Notes: a model not told the origin generated them from the sequence alone. A stretch of DNA of 24,000 nucleotides from Staphylococcus sp. IVB6181 (GCF_025561445.1 NZ_CP095096.1:141822-165821); one strand, 5' to 3'; shown: positions 8,629 through 17,450, counted from the stretch's first letter. A program made the numbers and translations.

Positions 8629-9702
8629 ATGTCTTGCACAACAGAGTTGTTGGAGGCTTTAGTAGAGTTTAATAGTGCGAATCAAGCTATGGCGAATAAG
8701 ACAATCGATTTTTGCGAACAATGGCTGAAAGACAAAGGATTAGAAGCTGAAGTGCTAATCAATGAAGGGTATAAGATGCTGGTTTGTACAGTAGGTAAAG
8801 GTGAACAGAAGATAATTTTCAATGGACATGTGGATGTGGTAAGCGGTGAACCATATCAATTTCAGCCTGAAGTAAAGGATGACAAAATGTATGGACGCGG
8901 AACTGCAGATATGAAAGGCGGACTTTCTGCCATGATGGCAGCCATCACTGAGTTGAGTACATTAGACTTAGGCAATACCTCAGTTCAGCTGCATATTGTG
9001 TCTGATGAAGAAACCGGAGGTAACTTCTGTACTTCTTATTTAGTCGATAACGGTTATTTAGGCGACTTTGCGATTTGCGGTGAACCTACGCAATTAGGTG
9101 TAGGCTATAAAGCAAAAGGTGTTTTGCAAATGGATATGTTCTTTGAAGGCAAACCTGCACACGGCAGCAGGCCGTGGGAAGGTGACAATGCGATCATAAA
9201 AGCTTTTAAGACATATGAAGCTATAAAAGAACTGCCGTTCGCAAAAGTTTCGAGTGATTTATATGATGCCCCTTCAATCAATCTTGCTAAAATACTCGGC
9301 GGTGATGCTTATAATAAAGTACCGCAAAAGTGTGAGATGAATGTTGATATACGCTATTTGCCAGAACAATCCAGTGCAGAGATACTTGAAGAAATAAAAG
9401 AGATTACAGATGCCAACGTCAAGATTCATTATGAAGCTGTGCCGGTTAATAATGATATTGAAAGCAAGCCTATGCAGCTAATGCTAAGTTGTATCGAAGC
9501 AGCAACCCATTCTTCACCAAAAGTCTTCGGTCAGCATGGTACTTCTGATGCGGCTTATTATTTAAAACATGATGTACCAGCAATAGAGTTCGGACCTTCT
9601 GGTTCAGATTGGCATGGGGAAGGGGAGTATGTTGAACTGAAATCTATAGAATCATACCAAACAATTCTCGTTAATTTCGTACAAAGCTTCAGCCGAAAAT
9701 AA
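8629..9702 (+). CDS. M20-family metallopeptidase/deacylase (ArgE/DapE-like)
   Basis: 357 aa. Metal-binding motifs NGHVDVV, GRGTADMKGG and VSDEETGG. Shine-Dalgarno sequence TAGGAGGGG. Confidence 0.88.
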   Translation: MSCTTELLEALVEFNSANQAMANKTIDFCEQWLKDKGLEAEVLINEGYKMLVCTVGKGEQKIIFNGHVDVVSGEPYQFQPEVKDDKMYGRGTADMKGGLSAMMAAITELSTLDLGNTSVQLHIVSDEETGGNFCTSYLVDNGYLGDFAICGEPTQLGVGYKAKGVLQMDMFFEGKPAHGSRPWEGDNAIIKAFKTYEAIKELPFAKVSSDLYDAPSINLAKILGGDAYNKVPQKCEMNVDIRYLPEQSSAEILEEIKEITDANVKIHYEAVPVNNDIESKPMQLMLSCIEAATHSSPKVFGQHGTSDAAYYLKHDVPAIEFGPSGSDWHGEGEYVELKSIESYQTILVNFVQSFSRK

Positions 9703-9832
9703 AAAAGAATGAAAAAATCTTAGGAAATTAAAAACAGTATAAGCCTTGTCAAATCAACACTTGTTACACGACCGTCACTCTTACTTCAGACAAACGGCAG
9801 TCTGACCTTTGGGTTTAAAATATTACTCTAAG

Positions 9833-9877
9833 CTAAAAAAGGAAGTATCGTTACCTAAATATAGGTATTGATACTTC
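9833..9877 (-). terminator. Intrinsic terminator downstream of the NERD gene
   Basis: Stem GAAGTATC (9842-9849) / GATACTTC (9870-9877) with inner TACCTA/TAGGTA pairing. On the minus strand the hairpin is followed by CTTTTTT. Confidence 0.6.
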
Positions 9878-9952
9878 AAGCTTTGTTTGTATTAAAAAGA
9901 AGAAAGAGGAAGGTAGTTATATTTATGTGATTATTATTGGTAGAGCATTGGG

Positions 9953-10684
9953 TTAGTGGATATTAATAATTGTTGCATCGTTATTAGCAAATTTATTCAA
10001 GGTCTCACAATGAGACATAATTGTGGCACTGTCCATATTTTTACGTGACTTGTTTCTTTGGATTTTCTTTCGGATTATCGTGCTCAATTCTTGTTCTGAT
10101 GAAGGTGTTTCAACATACTTATAAGCATTGCCGACGAATAGTTCACCTTCTCCCCTATGGTTAAAATAAATAATGTTTTCGATGAAGTCAGTTTTTAGTA
10201 CACTTTGGCAAAATGTTGTAGATTTCATTACTTGTTGGAAGGGATGTCCATATTTTTTGAATTGAAATTGATTGTTTTCATTACAAAGTATAAAGGTCAT
10301 ATAACTATCATCGTTGTCAGTGAATAAGTATTTTTTCAAACCATCAAGATTATAGTCTTTTAAATTATCTTTGTGGAAGTTAAAGTAAATATCGCCTTTC
10401 CAATGTTTGGTTTCTATTGCAAAGAAACCATGATCACAGATGACAAAGTGATCTACTTGATGAATTTCTTCTTCATTTTCAACAATAATATTATTATATA
10501 TTGCATAGTTTTTTATAAGCTTTTCTTCTTTTAAATTGAGAAATAACTTTTGCAGATGATTACTTGTTATTTGCTCTCCGATATTGAGTGATGACTGTAA
10601 CAAGTGTTCAAGTGTTTTCACCTTTTTATTTAGCTGTGTGTTTTGCTGCTGGAGTGATTCTAGTGAATTGTTGTGCATAGGCAT
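9953..10684 (-). CDS. NERD (nuclease-related domain) protein with N-terminal coiled coil
   Basis: 243 aa. NERD / PD-(D/E)xK-like core VDHFVICDHGFFAIETKHWKG. Shine-Dalgarno sequence GGAGGGA 5 nt upstream of the ATG. Divergent from the helicase operon. Confidence 0.75.
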   Translation of the reverse strand: MPMHNNSLESLQQQNTQLNKKVKTLEHLLQSSLNIGEQITSNHLQKLFLNLKEEKLIKNYAIYNNIIVENEEEIHQVDHFVICDHGFFAIETKHWKGDIYFNFHKDNLKDYNLDGLKKYLFTDNDDSYMTFILCNENNQFQFKKYGHPFQQVMKSTTFCQSVLKTDFIENIIYFNHRGEGELFVGNAYKYVETPSSEQELSTIIRKKIQRNKSRKNMDSATIMSHCETLNKFANNDATIINIH

Positions 10685-10830
10685 GTATTCCCTCCGTAGT
10701 TAATAGTATTATAGAAAAAGTTTTTTGCAATAGTGTTTAATTACAAAAGTACAATGATACAATAGGGGTTGCATACAATTATTTGACCATCTGATTTAGT
10801 TCAAAGCTATTATGAATGGGAGGAGTTAAA

Positions 10831-12360
10831 GTGTCAATACCAAAGCTGATTGGACATCAAACTGAAATTCTATATGTGCCAGATAATCAAAACATGGTAA
10901 TTACTGGTAGTGCTGGATGTGGTAAATCATTATTAGCTATTTATCGTATTTATTGGCTCTCTAAAAAGTATCCAACAGAAAGCATAGTATTGTTAACCTT
11001 TAATAGAGCAGTTAACGATGATATGAATCGTAAACTAAAATACTTAGCAGAGCAATGGGGAGATGGGTTACCTCAGAATTTGACAATAATGACCTATCAT
11101 AAATTTATGAGAGAAGTATTACAGAAATTAGTTGCAAATTACTCTGACAGATACTATGAATTGAACAAATACATAGGTTCAAAAAAATTGATACCTTACA
11201 ATAGTAATAGGAATGTACAAATTAAAGCAGCATTAGAAAAAGTTAAAGAAAAATATAGTGATGAAGATGAAAGTACGTTTAATCGCCCATTACAAACATT
11301 TATTGATGAAGTAATTTGGCTACAACAAATGTCAGTGGATTCATATGAGATGTATGAAGAAATGGAACGCATTGGCAGAAGAGGGACACGTGTAGAGCGG
11401 TCTAAACGCAAATATTTTTATGAAGTATATGAAGCGTATTTAGGGATAAGACAAGAGGAAAATCGTTATTTTGATTTTGAAGATATTGGATCGATAATTT
11501 GTAAAATTATTGAAAAGCTCAAAGATGAACCTAATATTGAAACACTTACGAGTTATAAGTATATATTAGTGGATGAGTTTCAAGATTTTACTTCGGATAT
11601 GTTGAAAACAGTTAATGTATTAAGTGATAGCACAGGAGCAATGGTTCTATTGGGAGATATTAATCAAGGTGTATTCGGAAAAAGGATCTCTTATAAGTCT
11701 TTAGGTATAGATATGAGGAGTTATAAAAAGTATCAGCTCAATCAAAATTATCGAAATAGTAAGCCAATTAGTGAGTTTGCATTGAAACTATCTCAATCTA
11801 AGTATTTTGATAAAAGTAATGAGTTCTATGCAGAGGCTAAACTAGGGGTTGGAGAAGGACCTAAACCTAAAATTATGAAGTACGATAACGAAAGCGACGA
11901 ACTAACAATGATGTATCAGTTTCTTTCAAGTAATACCATTCAGCAGACGGATAGAAGTGTTTGTGTCATTTTACCAACAATCAAAGCACAAGAATTTACA
12001 GGTTATATGAAACATCATGGGCTAAATGTAGTGAGTGTTAAAGATAAAAATAAATTTGAAATAAGTAAATTATTCTATGGAACATATCGAGAAATAAAAG
12101 GTCTGGAGTTTGATATTGTCATTATGCCATTTTTAAGCGAATCTATATTTATTGAAAGTATTATGAATGACAACAAAGAACTTGAAATTGATAAAGATGA
12201 TTGGGACTTAGAAGATATAGACGATGAAATTTTAGAGGCATATATTGCTCAATATTATGTCGGTGTAACGCGTGCTAAGGAAAAGTTAGTGATTATTCAT
12301 TCAGGAAATAGAACTCCACTTATGCCTGAAGATTTATTTGGTGAATATGTTGAAGAATAG
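10831..12360 (+). CDS. UvrD/PcrA/Rep-like SF1A helicase
   Basis: Motifs present: Walker A GSAGCGKS, Ia LLTFNRAV, II YILVDEFQDFT, III LLGDINQGVF, IV LNQNYRNS, V EIKGLEFDIVIM, VI YVGVTRAKEKLVII. The GTG at 10831 sits 5 nt after GGGAGGAG. The ORF-track ATG at 10816 lies inside that Shine-Dalgarno sequence, so it is less likely to be the start. Confidence 0.88.
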   Translation: MSIPKLIGHQTEILYVPDNQNMVITGSAGCGKSLLAIYRIYWLSKKYPTESIVLLTFNRAVNDDMNRKLKYLAEQWGDGLPQNLTIMTYHKFMREVLQKLVANYSDRYYELNKYIGSKKLIPYNSNRNVQIKAALEKVKEKYSDEDESTFNRPLQTFIDEVIWLQQMSVDSYEMYEEMERIGRRGTRVERSKRKYFYEVYEAYLGIRQEENRYFDFEDIGSIICKIIEKLKDEPNIETLTSYKYILVDEFQDFTSDMLKTVNVLSDSTGAMVLLGDINQGVFGKRISYKSLGIDMRSYKKYQLNQNYRNSKPISEFALKLSQSKYFDKSNEFYAEAKLGVGEGPKPKIMKYDNESDELTMMYQFLSSNTIQQTDRSVCVILPTIKAQEFTGYMKHHGLNVVSVKDKNKFEISKLFYGTYREIKGLEFDIVIMPFLSESIFIESIMNDNKELEIDKDDWDLEDIDDEILEAYIAQYYVGVTRAKEKLVIIHSGNRTPLMPEDLFGEYVEE

Positions 12361-12370
12361 GAGGTAAAAA

Positions 12371-13072
12371 ATGTTTGAATCAATTTTAAAAGAGCGTGAA
12401 ATTACGAGATTATGTCACTTCACTAAATCTAAAAACTTACCTTTTATTTTAGGTGAAGGCATAGATAGTGACGATGGTATTCTAGCGAACAATTTTATAT
12501 CTGATACTTCCTTTCTCGATAAAACAGATAAAGATAGATATGATAAGCATGAAGATTACATATGCACTTCTGTGCAGTATCCGAACTGCTATTATTTTTC
12601 ATCAGTATTAAAGAGAAGTATTAATCAGATTTTTAATGAATGGGTTATTTTATTAATAGATCCAAAAGTTATTGATCAAACTACTAAATTTTGTTCGGTT
12701 AATGCTGCTACGAAAGGGGGAACATTAATAGAAAAGGGTCCTGAAGCATTAGAAAAAATGTTTGATGAAGTAGTAGTAGGAAAAACCGACTTTTATAGAC
12801 CAGATAGTTATCCAGATAATACCCCGACTAATATACAAGGTGAAGTATTGGTATACAAAAAAGTAGCAAAAGAAGATATTATTGGACTTGTCTTTCCAAC
12901 TGATAAAATTGCTGAGAATGAATGTTTACGGTTAGAACTTTGTGGTGTGAATATCAAAGATTATGATATTGTTTCGTCCAGCGATTTATTTGAAAAGAAA
13001 GAAGTGGTGAAATTATTAAAAAAAGGTGAGTTGCCTTATGAAAAGGTGATGAAAATAAGTAATCATGGCTGA
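12371..13072 (+). CDS. DarT/DUF4433-like ADP-ribosyltransferase (putative toxin/effector)
   Basis: 233 aa. The motif order matches the DarT-type ART fold: ITRLCHFTKSKNLPFIL (His16), DYICTSVQYPNCYYF, KFCSVNAAT, and catalytic-type QGEVLVY (Glu158, nt 12842-12844). AGGAGG Shine-Dalgarno sequence. 10-nt gap after the helicase stop. Confidence 0.65.
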   Translation: MFESILKEREITRLCHFTKSKNLPFILGEGIDSDDGILANNFISDTSFLDKTDKDRYDKHEDYICTSVQYPNCYYFSSVLKRSINQIFNEWVILLIDPKVIDQTTKFCSVNAATKGGTLIEKGPEALEKMFDEVVVGKTDFYRPDSYPDNTPTNIQGEVLVYKKVAKEDIIGLVFPTDKIAENECLRLELCGVNIKDYDIVSSSDLFEKKEVVKLLKKGELPYEKVMKISNHG

Positions 13073-13727
13073 TAGATATGTATATTATATAGATAATCAA
13101 AGCTCGAAATTTATGAAAGAAAACATTACATTTCAATGGTATCCTGGATTTGCAAAAAAGCAAAAACAAAAGAGCGTGGTTAGTTTACACGAAGCATTTT
13201 TGTCATGTTTTCCTACCTCCAATGTACTTGAAGTATCGAGTAAATCTACAAATTCGGTGGGGGTTCAGGCAAGTGCATTCAATCTCAGTATTCAGACGGT
13301 AAAAGGACACACATTTACAGTTGAACAATTATTTCAATCTAGTAAAGTTTATAAAAAAGCAGGACGACACAACTATATGTTGAGAGACGGCTATACATCA
13401 CGAGAGATGAAATTAAAATTAAAGCAAATAGACTCAAATGATGTAATGATTAGTTACCACTGCTTCGGAAGAGATTTCAAGTTGGAGCCCAAAACACTTT
13501 TCTATAATTGGTTATATGTTAATGCGTTAACTCAAAATGAAAAACTCGCTAATGAAATTCTAAAATATGATGCGTTTACTGATATAGAATTCAACCCTAA
13601 ACGTTCCTATAATTGTCAGGCAGAAGCATGCTCTATTTATGTTTCACTTGTTAAAAGAGGTTTGTTAAATAAAGCATTAGAGAATTTGGAATCATTTGAA
13701 AGTGTTGTTTATGGTAAAGGTGAGTGA
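13065..13727 (+). CDS. Hypothetical protein translationally coupled to the ART gene (candidate antitoxin/partner); family not recognised
   Basis: 220 aa. Its ATG overlaps the ART stop codon (ATGGCTGA, 8-nt overlap). I could not see any macrodomain, NADAR, PARG or ARH signature. Codon usage is consistent with the neighbouring genes. Confidence 0.6.
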   Translation: MADRYVYYIDNQSSKFMKENITFQWYPGFAKKQKQKSVVSLHEAFLSCFPTSNVLEVSSKSTNSVGVQASAFNLSIQTVKGHTFTVEQLFQSSKVYKKAGRHNYMLRDGYTSREMKLKLKQIDSNDVMISYHCFGRDFKLEPKTLFYNWLYVNALTQNEKLANEILKYDAFTDIEFNPKRSYNCQAEACSIYVSLVKRGLLNKALENLESFESVVYGKGE

Positions 13728-13949
13728 AACTGAAATTTTATGATGAAAGATAATGAAATAGACAAGTAAGACTACGGATCCTTATACAAAATGAGTGGAA
13801 AACATCGTATAAATTTAATCGATATAACATTTCTTTACTTTAAAGGAATTATGATAATTTTAGTAATCTAATTCCAAATAACTTTAATAGAAAAACACAT
13901 TTGGATAACTTAAAAAGACATCCTGACATGGTCAAATAGTAGTTTGAAC

Positions 13950-13983: not shown

Positions 13984-14021
13984 AATAATTTATTGGGAAT
14001 CTGATAAACAAATTTTAAGTT

Positions 14022-14065
14022 ACTGTACAAATGAGTTGATAAATCTCGTTTGTACAGTTTTTTTA
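14022..14065 (+). terminator. Strong intrinsic terminator inside the IS 3' non-coding region, oriented against the transposase genes
   Basis: 14-bp stem ACTGTACAAATGAG (14022-14035) / CTCGTTTGTACAGT (14045-14058), 9-nt loop, then a run of seven T. Confidence 0.75.
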
Positions 14066-14167: not shown

Positions 14168-14956
14168 TTAAGCAATTAATCTTTCCATTTCCAAAGTAAT
14201 TCTCTCATTGTTGTAAAAATCAATGTATTCTTTAAACTGCGAGCGTGCAGTTTTTATATCCTTGAATTTATAATGTCTATTACCGCGATAAATTTCTGAT
14301 TTCATTATTCCCCAAAATGATTCCATTGGACTATTATCTATGCATCGTCCGACTCGTGACATGCTTTGAATAACACCTTGCTCATCGAGCAAGAATTTAA
14401 AATGTTTGCTTGTATATTGAAAACCTCTGTCGCTATGTAGTATTAAGCCGCTTATATTTTTCACTTTCTTTAACGCTTTATTGAAAGTATTAAAAACCAG
14501 CTGATTGTTATTTGAATAACTTATATCATAGCTTACAATTTTACCTGTTCCGAGATCTCTGATAGCGCTTAAATAAAATTTCCTTCCATTTTCTAAAATA
14601 AGTTCTGTCACATCTGTTACCCATTTTTTGTTAGCTTCCGTTTCACTAAATTCTCTATCTAATAAATTCTCTGCAGTAATAGTAGGTGTTGAGGGTCTAT
14701 ATCTTTTTCTTGCAGCACGTATGCAAGATTTTAGACCTAATTTTTTCATTAAACGATATACTCGTTTACGACTTACTTTTTTATCCAGTCTTAAACAGAT
14801 ATATATACGAATACGACGATAACCATATTTACCGTTGTATTTATTGAAAATCCACAAGATTTCTTTCATTAATATTTCATCTTCAATTTCACGCTGTGTT
14901 TTAAATTCTCTTCTCTTTCTCCACTTATAATAACTGGCTCTAGAAATTCCAACCAC
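14168..14956 (-). CDS. IS3-family transposase OrfB (rve/DDE catalytic domain), normally made as an OrfAB fusion
   Basis: DDE triad context WVTDVTE, LHSDRGFQYTS, DNSPMESFWGIMKSE. The frame stays open upstream of 14956 to the slippery site at 15064-15070 (..KKVEGERKRADQSPFRQIVEYLVIEDLKNEYPITLLCKVVG..). Confidence 0.9.
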   Translation of the reverse strand: MVGISRASYYKWRKRREFKTQREIEDEILMKEILWIFNKYNGKYGYRRIRIYICLRLDKKVSRKRVYRLMKKLGLKSCIRAARKRYRPSTPTITAENLLDREFSETEANKKWVTDVTELILENGRKFYLSAIRDLGTGKIVSYDISYSNNNQLVFNTFNKALKKVKNISGLILHSDRGFQYTSKHFKFLLDEQGVIQSMSRVGRCIDNSPMESFWGIMKSEIYRGNRHYKFKDIKTARSQFKEYIDFYNNERITLEMERLIA

Positions 14957-15015
14957 CTTACATAACAGAGTTATTGGATATTCATTTTTTAAGTCTTCTA
15001 TTACAAGGTACTCAA

Positions 15016-15720
15016 CTATTTGTCTAAACGGCGATTGATCAGCTCTCTTTCTTTCTCCTTCAACTTTTTTAAAATCTTGTTTTCCATTTCTAAGTATTTG
15101 ATTCTTTCTTCAAGAGCTTTTGTTTTAGCTAATGCTTGTTCTTCATCAGTCATTGTCTGAGTTGGCTTACCTTTACCTCTTCCGTCTACAAGACCGGCAC
15201 TTCCAAATTGTTCATATTTTTTAACCCAACTATATACTTGGCCATAATTAACATTATATTTTAAAGCTGTTTTCTTATAATCTTTTTCTGACTCAATACA
15301 TGCTTCTACTATTTCTACACGTTCTTCGAACGTTGTTTTTCTCGCTTTCATTGAATACACCCCTAGTAATGGAGAATATGAAACATTCTCTTTTCCTAAA
15401 GTATATCGTTTTATCCAATCCCTAACAGTAGAATATGCTGGAATATTATATTTTATTGCTAAATCAACAGCAGAAACACCTTCAGTTAAGTATTCCTGAA
15501 CAATTGTTTCTTTAAATGCTTTACTATAAGTATTATTGCTTTTCTTTGGTAATAGTACCTCAACGCCATGTACTTTATATTGGTGATATTTAAACATCAC
15601 CTGTTTACGATTTAATTCTATACCACTCTTTTCTATAGCTTCATTACAACTATAACCTTCATCTATTAAACTAAATGTTAAGAGAAATAATTTAATGTCA
15701 CTTTCGAGATATTTAGACAT
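15016..15720 (-). CDS. IS3-family transposase OrfA (multi-HTH DNA-binding protein with C-terminal leucine-zipper-like helix)
   Basis: 234 aa. HTH-like segments (SAVDLAIKYNIPAYSTVRDWIKRY; KKTALKYNVNYGQVYSWVKKY) and C-terminal heptads LEERIKYLEMENKILKKLKE. Shine-Dalgarno sequence GGGGGAG. Confidence 0.9.
   Translation of the reverse strand: MSKYLESDIKLFLLTFSLIDEGYSCNEAIEKSGIELNRKQVMFKYHQYKVHGVEVLLPKKSNNTYSKAFKETIVQEYLTEGVSAVDLAIKYNIPAYSTVRDWIKRYTLGKENVSYSPLLGVYSMKARKTTFEERVEIVEACIESEKDYKKTALKYNVNYGQVYSWVKKYEQFGSAGLVDGRGKGKPTQTMTDEEQALAKTKALEERIKYLEMENKILKKLKEKERELINRRLDK
15064..15070 (-). promoter_or_regulatory. Programmed -1 ribosomal frameshift heptamer A_AAA_AAG (orfA to orfB)
   Basis: The minus strand reads ttA AAA AAG in the orfA zero frame. 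A -1 shift here joins in frame to the open orfB frame. Confidence 0.8.
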
Positions 15721-16035: not shown

Positions 16036-16703
16036 ATGTATACTGGGTATTTTAATGTTATTTGCAAATTAGTCTCTTTGTTACTGCGTTGTCAAAATGA
16101 ATATACCGAAAAGTTTTTAAATAATTATACTACTACTTACAATTTGAAAAAGTATTGTGTGTATAAAATTATTGATAAAAAGAGTGAAGAATATATTTTT
16201 GATTGGAATTTCCTAACTTATCTCAATGGATATTGTGATAAGTTAATAGAAGTACAAATTGAACTTGAAGAAGAAATTGGAAATCACTTCAAAATAAGTA
16301 TAGATAGTAGAGTTAAGCAACCAGAATCAAGGTTGTCTAAACTGTTAGTGTATAGGTTTGAAAAGATGAAAAAGGAAAGACACCATTACGTAAATGTTTA
16401 AATGACTTGTTTGGATGCAGGTTAATTTTAGATATTTCTAATTTGGAAGATTTTTTTGAACAACTAAACAAATATTTAGATAAAACATTAAATATTAAAA
16501 CAACCTATAATGATAAAAACGGGTACAAAGCTGTCCATATTTATTTACGTGGTGAAAATAACAAGTGTTTTCCATGGGAAATACAAATTTGGAATAGCAA
16601 AGATGAAGAAAGTAATAGAGAATCGCATAGTAAATATAAACAAGATTATTTAAAATGGCCCAAAATAGTAAAGGAAATAATTGTGACAAAGGAGGGAAAT
16701 TAA
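16036..16703 (+). pseudogene. RelA/SpoT-homologue small alarmone-synthetase-like toxin (toxSAS), split by a 1-nt frame change in an A5 run
   Basis: ORF 16036-16401 carries SRVKQPESRLSKLL. ORF 16407-16703 carries DLFGCRLILD (when the frame is extended upstream), GYKAVHIYLRG, WEIQIWN and SHSKYK. The two frames overlap at atgAAAAAGg (16366-16375). Adding one base, or a -1 ribosomal slip, gives one protein of about 222 aa. Confidence 0.75.
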
Positions 16704-17450
16704 ATGTTTAAACATTTTCTGTTGATAATACCTGATCATAAACATGGACGTAGGGTTGGATGGCATAAATTAATCACCGCTGCGGATGACTATAAATATA
16801 TAAAACACACTGTGCAAAAGATAACTTCTGAAGTAGGGGGAGCACAACTTGCGTCACATATAATCACTACAGATTCAGATGAAATTAGTTCTATAAAACA
16901 AAAAGACACGTTTTTTTCAGATATTGATTTTTTTGAAAATGAGGATGACTTTATAAATTATTATAAAAATGAAAAAGAACTTACTGCTAATGATGTGGCT
17001 AACTACATTTTAAGTTATGGGAAAAATATTACTCATTTGAAACTACAAAAGTTAACGTATTTGTGTTATGAGAATGTATTAAAAAAATTAAATTTCAAAC
17101 TTTTTGATGATAATATATATGCCTATAAACTTGGTCCTGTAATTGATAGCATATATTCAAGGTATAGAAATGGTGGTAAAGATATATTAGATATTGAAGA
17201 GGATGATAGTATTTACCTTTCTGAAAGTGATTTGTTAATAAAACCGTCCCTAAGCAGAGTATTGTTTTCAGAGAATGGAGTTAAGGTTTTGCAAGTTATT
17301 GATACTACATTAGAAGAATATATTGATTATTCAACGAGTGCATTGGTAAATATTACCCATGAAGAAGGAACTGCTTGGAATAACACATATATAGAAGGCG
17401 TAAAGAATAACATAATATCTGATGAACAGATATTAACAAGTAGTAAATAA
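16704..17450 (+). CDS. Panacea (DUF4065/SocA-like) domain antitoxin, PanA-like
   Basis: 248 aa. Panacea core ANDVANYILSYGKNITHLKLQKLTYLCYE...YAYKLGPVIDSIYSRY. The ATG directly abuts the toxSAS stop (TAAATG), and AAGGAGGG lies within the toxin's 3' end. Confidence 0.75.
   Translation: MFKHFLLIIPDHKHGRRVGWHKLITAADDYKYIKHTVQKITSEVGGAQLASHIITTDSDEISSIKQKDTFFSDIDFFENEDDFINYYKNEKELTANDVANYILSYGKNITHLKLQKLTYLCYENVLKKLNFKLFDDNIYAYKLGPVIDSIYSRYRNGGKDILDIEEDDSIYLSESDLLIKPSLSRVLFSENGVKVLQVIDTTLEEYIDYSTSALVNITHEEGTAWNNTYIEGVKNNIISDEQILTSSK

Follow-up and report, generated by a model that had tools for sequence, protein, structure and literature searches.

The locus examined here raises the question of which protein is encoded immediately behind the ADP-ribosyltransferase (ART) gene in a 24,000-nucleotide stretch of DNA from Staphylococcus sp. 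IVB6181, which is called the window hereafter. An earlier note, prepared from the sequence alone, had described this ORF as an orphan whose product could be an antitoxin or a reversal enzyme of an unrecognised type. Our analysis led us to conclude with high confidence that its product is the antitoxin, a member of the NADAR family, in a toxin-antitoxin and phage-defence module of the DarTG1 type, in which the ART (DarT) is the toxin. The ORF (13065..13727, + strand) starts with ATG and is translated into 220 aa. A TGA codon is present in the same frame at 13050-13052, and 13065 is therefore the earliest possible start; the alignment with the NADAR protein of Geobacter lovleyi begins at the first residue of the ORF (Met1-Ala2). 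The ART gene (12371..13072, + strand) terminates with a TGA at 13070-13072. The junction thus reads ATGgcTGA (13065..13072, + strand), which bears out the 8-nt start/stop overlap described in the earlier note. The accompanying statement that the ORF has no strong Shine-Dalgarno sequence of its own was also confirmed. None was detected at a working distance from the ATG, the sole SD-like element being AGGTGAT at 13044-13050, 14 nt 5′ of the ATG, in contrast to the ART gene, for which AGGAGG is located 7 nt 5′ of the start. The four peptide segments quoted for the ORF were all found in its translation.

A Pfam search assigned the ORF to PF22397 (NADAR-DarT1, "DarT1-associated NADAR antitoxin") with E=2.6e-72 and 243.2 bits, as compared with a cut-off of 27. 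This match covers the full length of the protein (residues 2-214, aligned with positions 1-211 of the 212 in the profile), and it overturns the earlier view that the ORF carries no NADAR signature. Among the PDB sequences searched with phmmer, the only real match was the G. lovleyi NADAR (8BAT; E=1e-52 over residues 1-217), with which the ORF shares 46% identity. An AlphaFold2 (AF2) model built on 33 homologues was obtained with a pLDDT of 95.4 and a pTM of 0.91. One significant match to this model was found among solved structures by using Foldseek, which was again 8BAT (TM 0.91/0.91, rmsd 1.9 Å, 219 columns). The profile search and the Foldseek comparison that had been proposed as checks hence both led to a known fold, that of NADAR. 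A large protein collection contained 1718 homologues, and all of those among the 120 matches listed carry PF22397, so that the ORF is not an orphan. The best homologue is 95% identical and already bears the RefSeq/NCBI name [quoted passage not shown]; for the ORF itself, the consequence is therefore little beyond a correct annotation. An exact-sequence look-up of the window NADAR protein returned no record. The family to which the ORF belongs, as an ordinary member that is already annotated, was characterised structurally and biochemically in 2023.

No Macro match to the ORF was obtained in Pfam at E≤1, and macrodomain, ARH, PARG, and YbiA-type identities were ruled out by the PF22397 and 8BAT fold matches. 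Scans of the ORF with NCBIfam, PADLOC 2.0, and PHROGs gave nothing useful, PADLOC 2.0 having no model that recognises this protein. These blanks were judged to be a gap in the three libraries and not a sign of novelty, because Pfam and the PDB gave decisive matches. They are also the only observations that speak for a new type of antitoxin, which the earlier note had pictured as an ADP-ribosyl-nucleic-acid hydrolase of new fold, an inhibitor acting stoichiometrically, or a subunit serving as a sensor, and they reflect library content. Set against the Pfam and 8BAT E-values, the TM of 0.91, and the many homologues that are already named, such a new type retains scarcely any probability. The part of the proposal that stands is the antitoxin slot and the assignment to an ADP-ribose-removing enzyme family, while the word "unrecognised" does not survive the Pfam family, the solved structure, and the RefSeq name. 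As Pfam finds the antitoxin and the other three libraries miss it, defence-system callers that rely on these three libraries may miss or half-call staphylococcal DarTG1.

The model of the ORF contains an N-terminal β1-β2-α1 extension, which is composed of strands 2-9 and 16-23 and helix 31-48. Such a strand-strand-helix extension was described by Schuller et al. as typical of DarT-associated NADARs (PMC11543638), and orphan phage NADARs are without it (PMC11257639). In an alignment of 33 homologues sharing 45-95% identity with the window NADAR, E87, K94, K116, and D173 were invariant. Mutagenesis of the E. coli C7 NADAR demonstrated that E88, K95, and D171 are required to remove ADP-ribose from guanine, and that K115 is dispensable for catalysis yet required for rescue in vivo, for which the authors suggest a contact with DNA or DarT1 (PMC11543638). 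Judging from residue spacing (E-7-K; D-I-E, D-x-E) and invariance, the four window residues are probably equivalent to C7 E88, K95, K115, and D171, respectively. The catalytic acid is an Asp (D173), the type usual in DarT1-linked NADARs. Phage AdfN and T4 gp30.3 (PMC11257639) resemble the window protein in the NADAR fold, the E and K residues, and the presumed removal of ADP-ribose from DNA, whereas the window protein differs from them in its extension, its adjacent DarT, and D173.

The linkage of the two genes was examined in a set of 116 related loci, which were drawn from genomes and metagenomes as well as viral contigs and whose ORFs were searched with iterated profiles of the window proteins. 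DarT was located directly upstream of NADAR on the same strand in 97 of the 107 loci with enough upstream sequence, and in 75 of 85 after crude dereplication. The co-occurrence with DarT genes that the earlier note had wished to see counted is hence positive, and represents a known pairing. Of 102 loci, 28 have toxin and antitoxin genes that overlap by 11, 8, or 1 nt, and in nearly all the remaining ones the two genes are separated by 0-22 nt, indicating that tight coupling is a family trait and not peculiar to the window. The DarT-NADAR pair stands alone in Lactococcus lactis and most other loci. These results bear on the alternative that the ORF is a stand-alone NADAR lying beside the ART gene by chance, whether as a housekeeping N-glycosidase similar to YbiA or as an AdfN-like anti-defence protein derived from a prophage. 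Some homologues do have no DarT upstream, including three on viral contigs, and orphan phage NADARs are known (PMC11257639). However, the best match of the window protein is to the DarT1-specific model and not to a generic NADAR, the extension missing from phage NADARs is present, an Asp serves as the catalytic acid, as is typical of DarT1-linked members, and the gene overlaps DarT by 8 nt in a pairing that is kept throughout most of the related loci. A chance neighbour is extremely improbable on this evidence, and the cognate antitoxin is retained as the identity of the ORF. As a separate observation, NADAR-DarT1 homologues without a detectable DarT, for which at least 700 nt of upstream sequence was present, were found in L009, L010, L046, L072, L087, and L099 and on the viral contigs L104, L110, and L111; the three viral cases agree with the published proposal that phages carry orphan NADARs directed against DarT.

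The ART gene encodes a DarT1-type DNA ADP-ribosyltransferase toxin of 233 aa (PF14487, E=5.4e-14), which matched the E. coli C7 DarT1 (8BAQ) with E=7e-17 over residues 3-183. Its H16-F17-T18, R56, D58, and S67 align with C7 H17-F18-T19, R52, D54, and S63, and its N111, Q156, and E158 align with C7 N104, Q150, and E152. N104 is the guanine-coordinating residue of DarT1, and DarT2 has a His (His119) at this place, which separates DarT1 from DarT2. The window protein possesses Y75 at the position of M71, a residue essential in C7, and S78 and V79 at the C7 guanine contacts K74 and Y75, in a loop for which the alignment is uncertain. Guanine is hence the putative target base of the window DarT, as suggested mainly by the conserved Asn; it is given as putative because M71 is replaced by a Tyr and the K74/Y75 contacts are not conserved. 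The DarTG2 systems (M. tuberculosis, Thermus, EPEC) are similar in that an ART toxin acting on single-stranded DNA bases is reversed by an adjacent glycohydrolase antitoxin. In contrast to the window, which has no macrodomain match and whose DarT has Asn for His119, DarG2 consists of a macrodomain and a DarT-binding domain, and thymidine is the target.

The closest known system is DarTG1 of E. coli C7 and G. lovleyi (Schuller et al. 2023, PMC11543638; 8BAT, 8BAQ). It has the same toxin-then-antitoxin order with a tight junction, a single-domain NADAR with the β-β-α extension and the E/K/K/D residue set, and a DarT in which the guanine-coordinating Asn and the R-D pair are present, in addition to the identity and TM values given above for 8BAT. 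The window differs from it in a co-transcribed UvrD-like helicase upstream, next to which a NERD gene is found in staphylococci, in the Tyr that replaces M71, and in a NADAR without the QLxLF-type tail of approximately one-third of the homologues. For the window locus, the analysis established the family, the fold, the conservation of the catalytic residues, and the linkage of the genes, and we infer ADP-ribosyl-guanine hydrolysis and the antitoxin role from the homologues of E. coli C7 and G. lovleyi. By this analogy, DarT1 would move ADP-ribose from NAD+ to the guanine N2 in single-stranded DNA, leading to a block of replication. The NADAR would hydrolyse the ADP-ribosyl-guanine bond, and the cell's own DNA would be kept clean while both genes are expressed. 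It would therefore be a type IV antitoxin, acting on the product and not on the toxin. The 8-nt overlap may couple translation of the antitoxin to that of the toxin, so that the former would be made whenever the latter is made. The short UvrD-like helicase, which is the first gene in the operon, probably takes part in sensing or activation.

Both cognate and non-cognate NADARs were reported to rescue DarT1 toxicity and to remove guanine ADP-ribose in vitro (PMC11543638). No interaction was detected between DarG1 and DarT1 by two-hybrid assay (PMC11257639), and DarG1 therefore behaves as a type IV antitoxin. A different mode of action can be considered, in which the NADAR works mainly in a complex with the helicase and/or DarT that holds the toxin inactive until infection, with hydrolysis being secondary (type II/VII-like). 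The requirement of C7 K115 for rescue but not for catalysis (PMC11543638), its invariant counterpart K116 in the window, the essential ATP site of the DarHTG helicase (PMC13069673), and the tight packing of helicase, DarT, and NADAR in one operon are in favour of such a complex. However, catalytic-residue mutants of the C7 NADAR lose rescue and non-cognate NADARs provide it (PMC11543638), the two-hybrid result argues against contact (PMC11257639), and the catalytic residues are all invariant in the window NADAR. The complex is hence considered improbable, and removal of ADP-ribose from the modified DNA is the preferred action of the window NADAR.

The helicase gene (10816..12360, + strand) encodes a short UvrD-like SF1 helicase of 514 aa that is DarH-like (PF00580, E=6.5e-25); it ends 10 nt 5′ of DarT and is co-oriented with it. 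The motifs GSAGCGKS (Walker A), DEFQD, NYRNS, and VGVTRA were identified in the sequence. A model with a pLDDT of 86.6 gave UvrD, PcrA, and Rep as the best fold matches in Foldseek, and the window protein is approximately 110-140 residues shorter than the 622-658-residue chains of these helicases. The segment between motif IV (N311-N314) and the strand 419-423 comprises only about 105 residues, in which strand and helix are mixed. The whole-chain Foldseek alignments span approximately 680-700 columns for 514 query residues; the shorter helicase model agrees with the absence of a 2B domain, without being proof of it. Of 69 loci, 17 (7 of 50 after dereplication) have the helicase gene immediately 5′ of DarT, in a sample that is biased to close relatives of the query.

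A NERD-domain protein is encoded divergently from the helicase (9953..10684, − strand; PF08378, E=3.5e-11). The NERD/helicase/DarT/NADAR block was found in S. simulans, S. pettenkoferi, and the S. warneri/pasteuri group, and the NERD gene, divergent from the helicase in every staphylococcal locus, occupies the same position in L001, L011-L016, and L020-L023. Macrococcus armenti and Streptococcus sanguinis have helicase-DarT-NADAR without NERD, and the NERD gene was not detected in the Streptococcus, Macrococcus, or ARH-type loci examined. Membership of the NERD gene in the system is uncertain. Separately, a candidate model of PADLOC termed "NERD+UvrD" was matched by the window helicase at 1.2e-16.

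The helicase connects this locus to DarHTG, an E. coli system consisting of a DarH helicase without a 2B domain, DarT, and the ARH-like DarG3, in which the ATP site of the helicase is essential for phage defence (NAR 2026, PMC13069673). In both, a short UvrD-family helicase gene opens a row of three genes on one strand, and DarT comes second. Distant homologues of the window helicase share 28-30% identity with it and are about 464 aa long, and the three that were looked up are all encoded in helicase-DarT-ADP_ribosyl_GH operons, exactly the DarHTG layout. ARH antitoxins accompanied by homologous helicases were observed in L117-L119 and L121. The window differs from DarHTG in its antitoxin, which is a NADAR of the DarG1 type and not the ARH-like DarG3 (ADP_ribosyl_GH). 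The relation to DarHTG was drawn from operon architecture.

A further shared character was found in the toxins. The M71 column is occupied by Tyr or Phe in 15 of 15 helicase-linked DarTs, irrespective of whether the partner is a NADAR or an ARH, as compared with Met in 54 of 65 others; Tyr occurs there in only 2 of the 65 DarTs without helicase. The active-site set H/F/T, R, D, N, Q, and E is kept in all 15 helicase-linked proteins. Tyr75 of the window DarT is encoded at 12593-12595, and the same column was noted in L001, L003-L005, L011, L012, L020, L021, L026, L028, L078, and L118-L121. The helicase-linked DarTs formed one clade in a BLOSUM62 neighbour-joining tree, but the exact split was absent when Kimura-corrected identity distances were used and appeared in 15 of 60 bootstraps. 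Monophyly of these DarTs is hence only suggested by the sequences, and a firmer character is the Y/F that they have in common at the M71 column.

These features place the staphylococcal, macrococcal, and some streptococcal DarTG1 loci with a co-transcribed DarH-like helicase in connection with DarHTG, and suggest that NADAR and ARH antitoxins are swapped on a common helicase-toxin chassis. The window could accordingly be read as a helicase-dependent DarTG1 in which a DarH-like helicase is combined with a NADAR and with a DarT1 that has an aromatic residue for M71. It would belong to one helicase-linked lineage with NADAR/ARH antitoxin exchange, in which the helicase, and perhaps the nuclease-like NERD protein of staphylococci, is needed to trigger or direct the toxin. 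We hold this reading tentatively, as a possibility that falls slightly short of being probable. No description of a helicase-DarT pair with a NADAR antitoxin was found in the literature searched, and the helicase context is a modest lead and the only mildly new aspect of the locus.

The genomic setting is that of a variable defence island. From 8650 to 13947, the window shares 96.7% identity with an S. simulans contig (L011), and synteny ends at the latter position, approximately 220 nt after the NADAR stop. The metagenome contig L020, which stops at 13999, has DNA of 99.85% identity with the window from 8065 up to that point. From these two end points, the IS3-family element that follows (14168..15720, − strand) was taken as the variable edge of the island; it consists of orfA with an HTH (15016..15720) and orfB with an rve integrase core (14168..14956), which are in different frames. 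Beyond it lie two ORFs on the + strand (16036..16401 and 16407..16703), apparently a split RelA/SpoT-type (toxSAS-like) pyrophosphokinase, of which the second half only matched PF04607 (E=6.9e-5), followed with no gap by a SocA/Panacea-domain antitoxin (16704..17450, + strand; E=6.5e-14). An interruption or a wrongly assigned start is possible for the RelA/SpoT-type toxin. In the S. simulans relative, a type I restriction system and SIR2-HerA are located downstream, in place of the IS3 element and the RelA/SpoT-Panacea pair of the window. The four-gene block (9953..13727) has a G+C content of 31.2% as compared with 38.6% and 39.5% in flanking chromosomal genes, which suggests horizontal acquisition. 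A promoter scan around the operon gave 22 hits, against 24.5 expected in shuffled sequence. By eye, an inverted repeat (ACTGTACAAA / TTTGTACAGT) with a 17-nt loop and a following run of seven T was noticed at 14022..14065 (+ strand), just outside the block common with S. simulans. It was missed by a G+C-based scan and looks like a terminator.

Several variant forms were observed among the related proteins. A C-terminal tail of the form Q[LVIM]x[LIFM][FLWM] ends approximately one-third of the DarT1-associated NADARs (EQLSIFD, VQLSLF, EQLTLF, and similar); it was counted in 42 of 116 top homologues and 27 of 93 locus ORFs, as compared with 0.6% of shuffled tails. Examples are L002, L003, L017, L036, L040, L101, and P-series proteins, and the tail is absent from the window NADAR and all staphylococcal members. 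It resembles the bacterial β-clamp-binding motif, QL[SD]LF. The two papers on DarG1 that were consulted make no mention of this tail. Long DarT ORFs of about 570-590 aa are present in L081 (2953-4662), L106 (3232-4998), L107, and L115, with the DarT domain located C-terminally and no Pfam match to the first ~370 residues. Furthermore, NADAR ORFs of 631-651 aa were found in L027, L029, L031, L032, L034, and L035, in which NADAR-DarT1 domains are fused in-frame to type I restriction components. In L032, the NADAR is fused to HsdS (Methylase_S), with a DEAD/ResIII helicase upstream of DarT and HsdM downstream, and a 996-aa ORF of L100 (5001-7991) joins NADAR to HsdM (N6_Mtase). These fusions to HsdS and HsdM thus indicate that DarT-NADAR is embedded inside type I restriction-modification operons.
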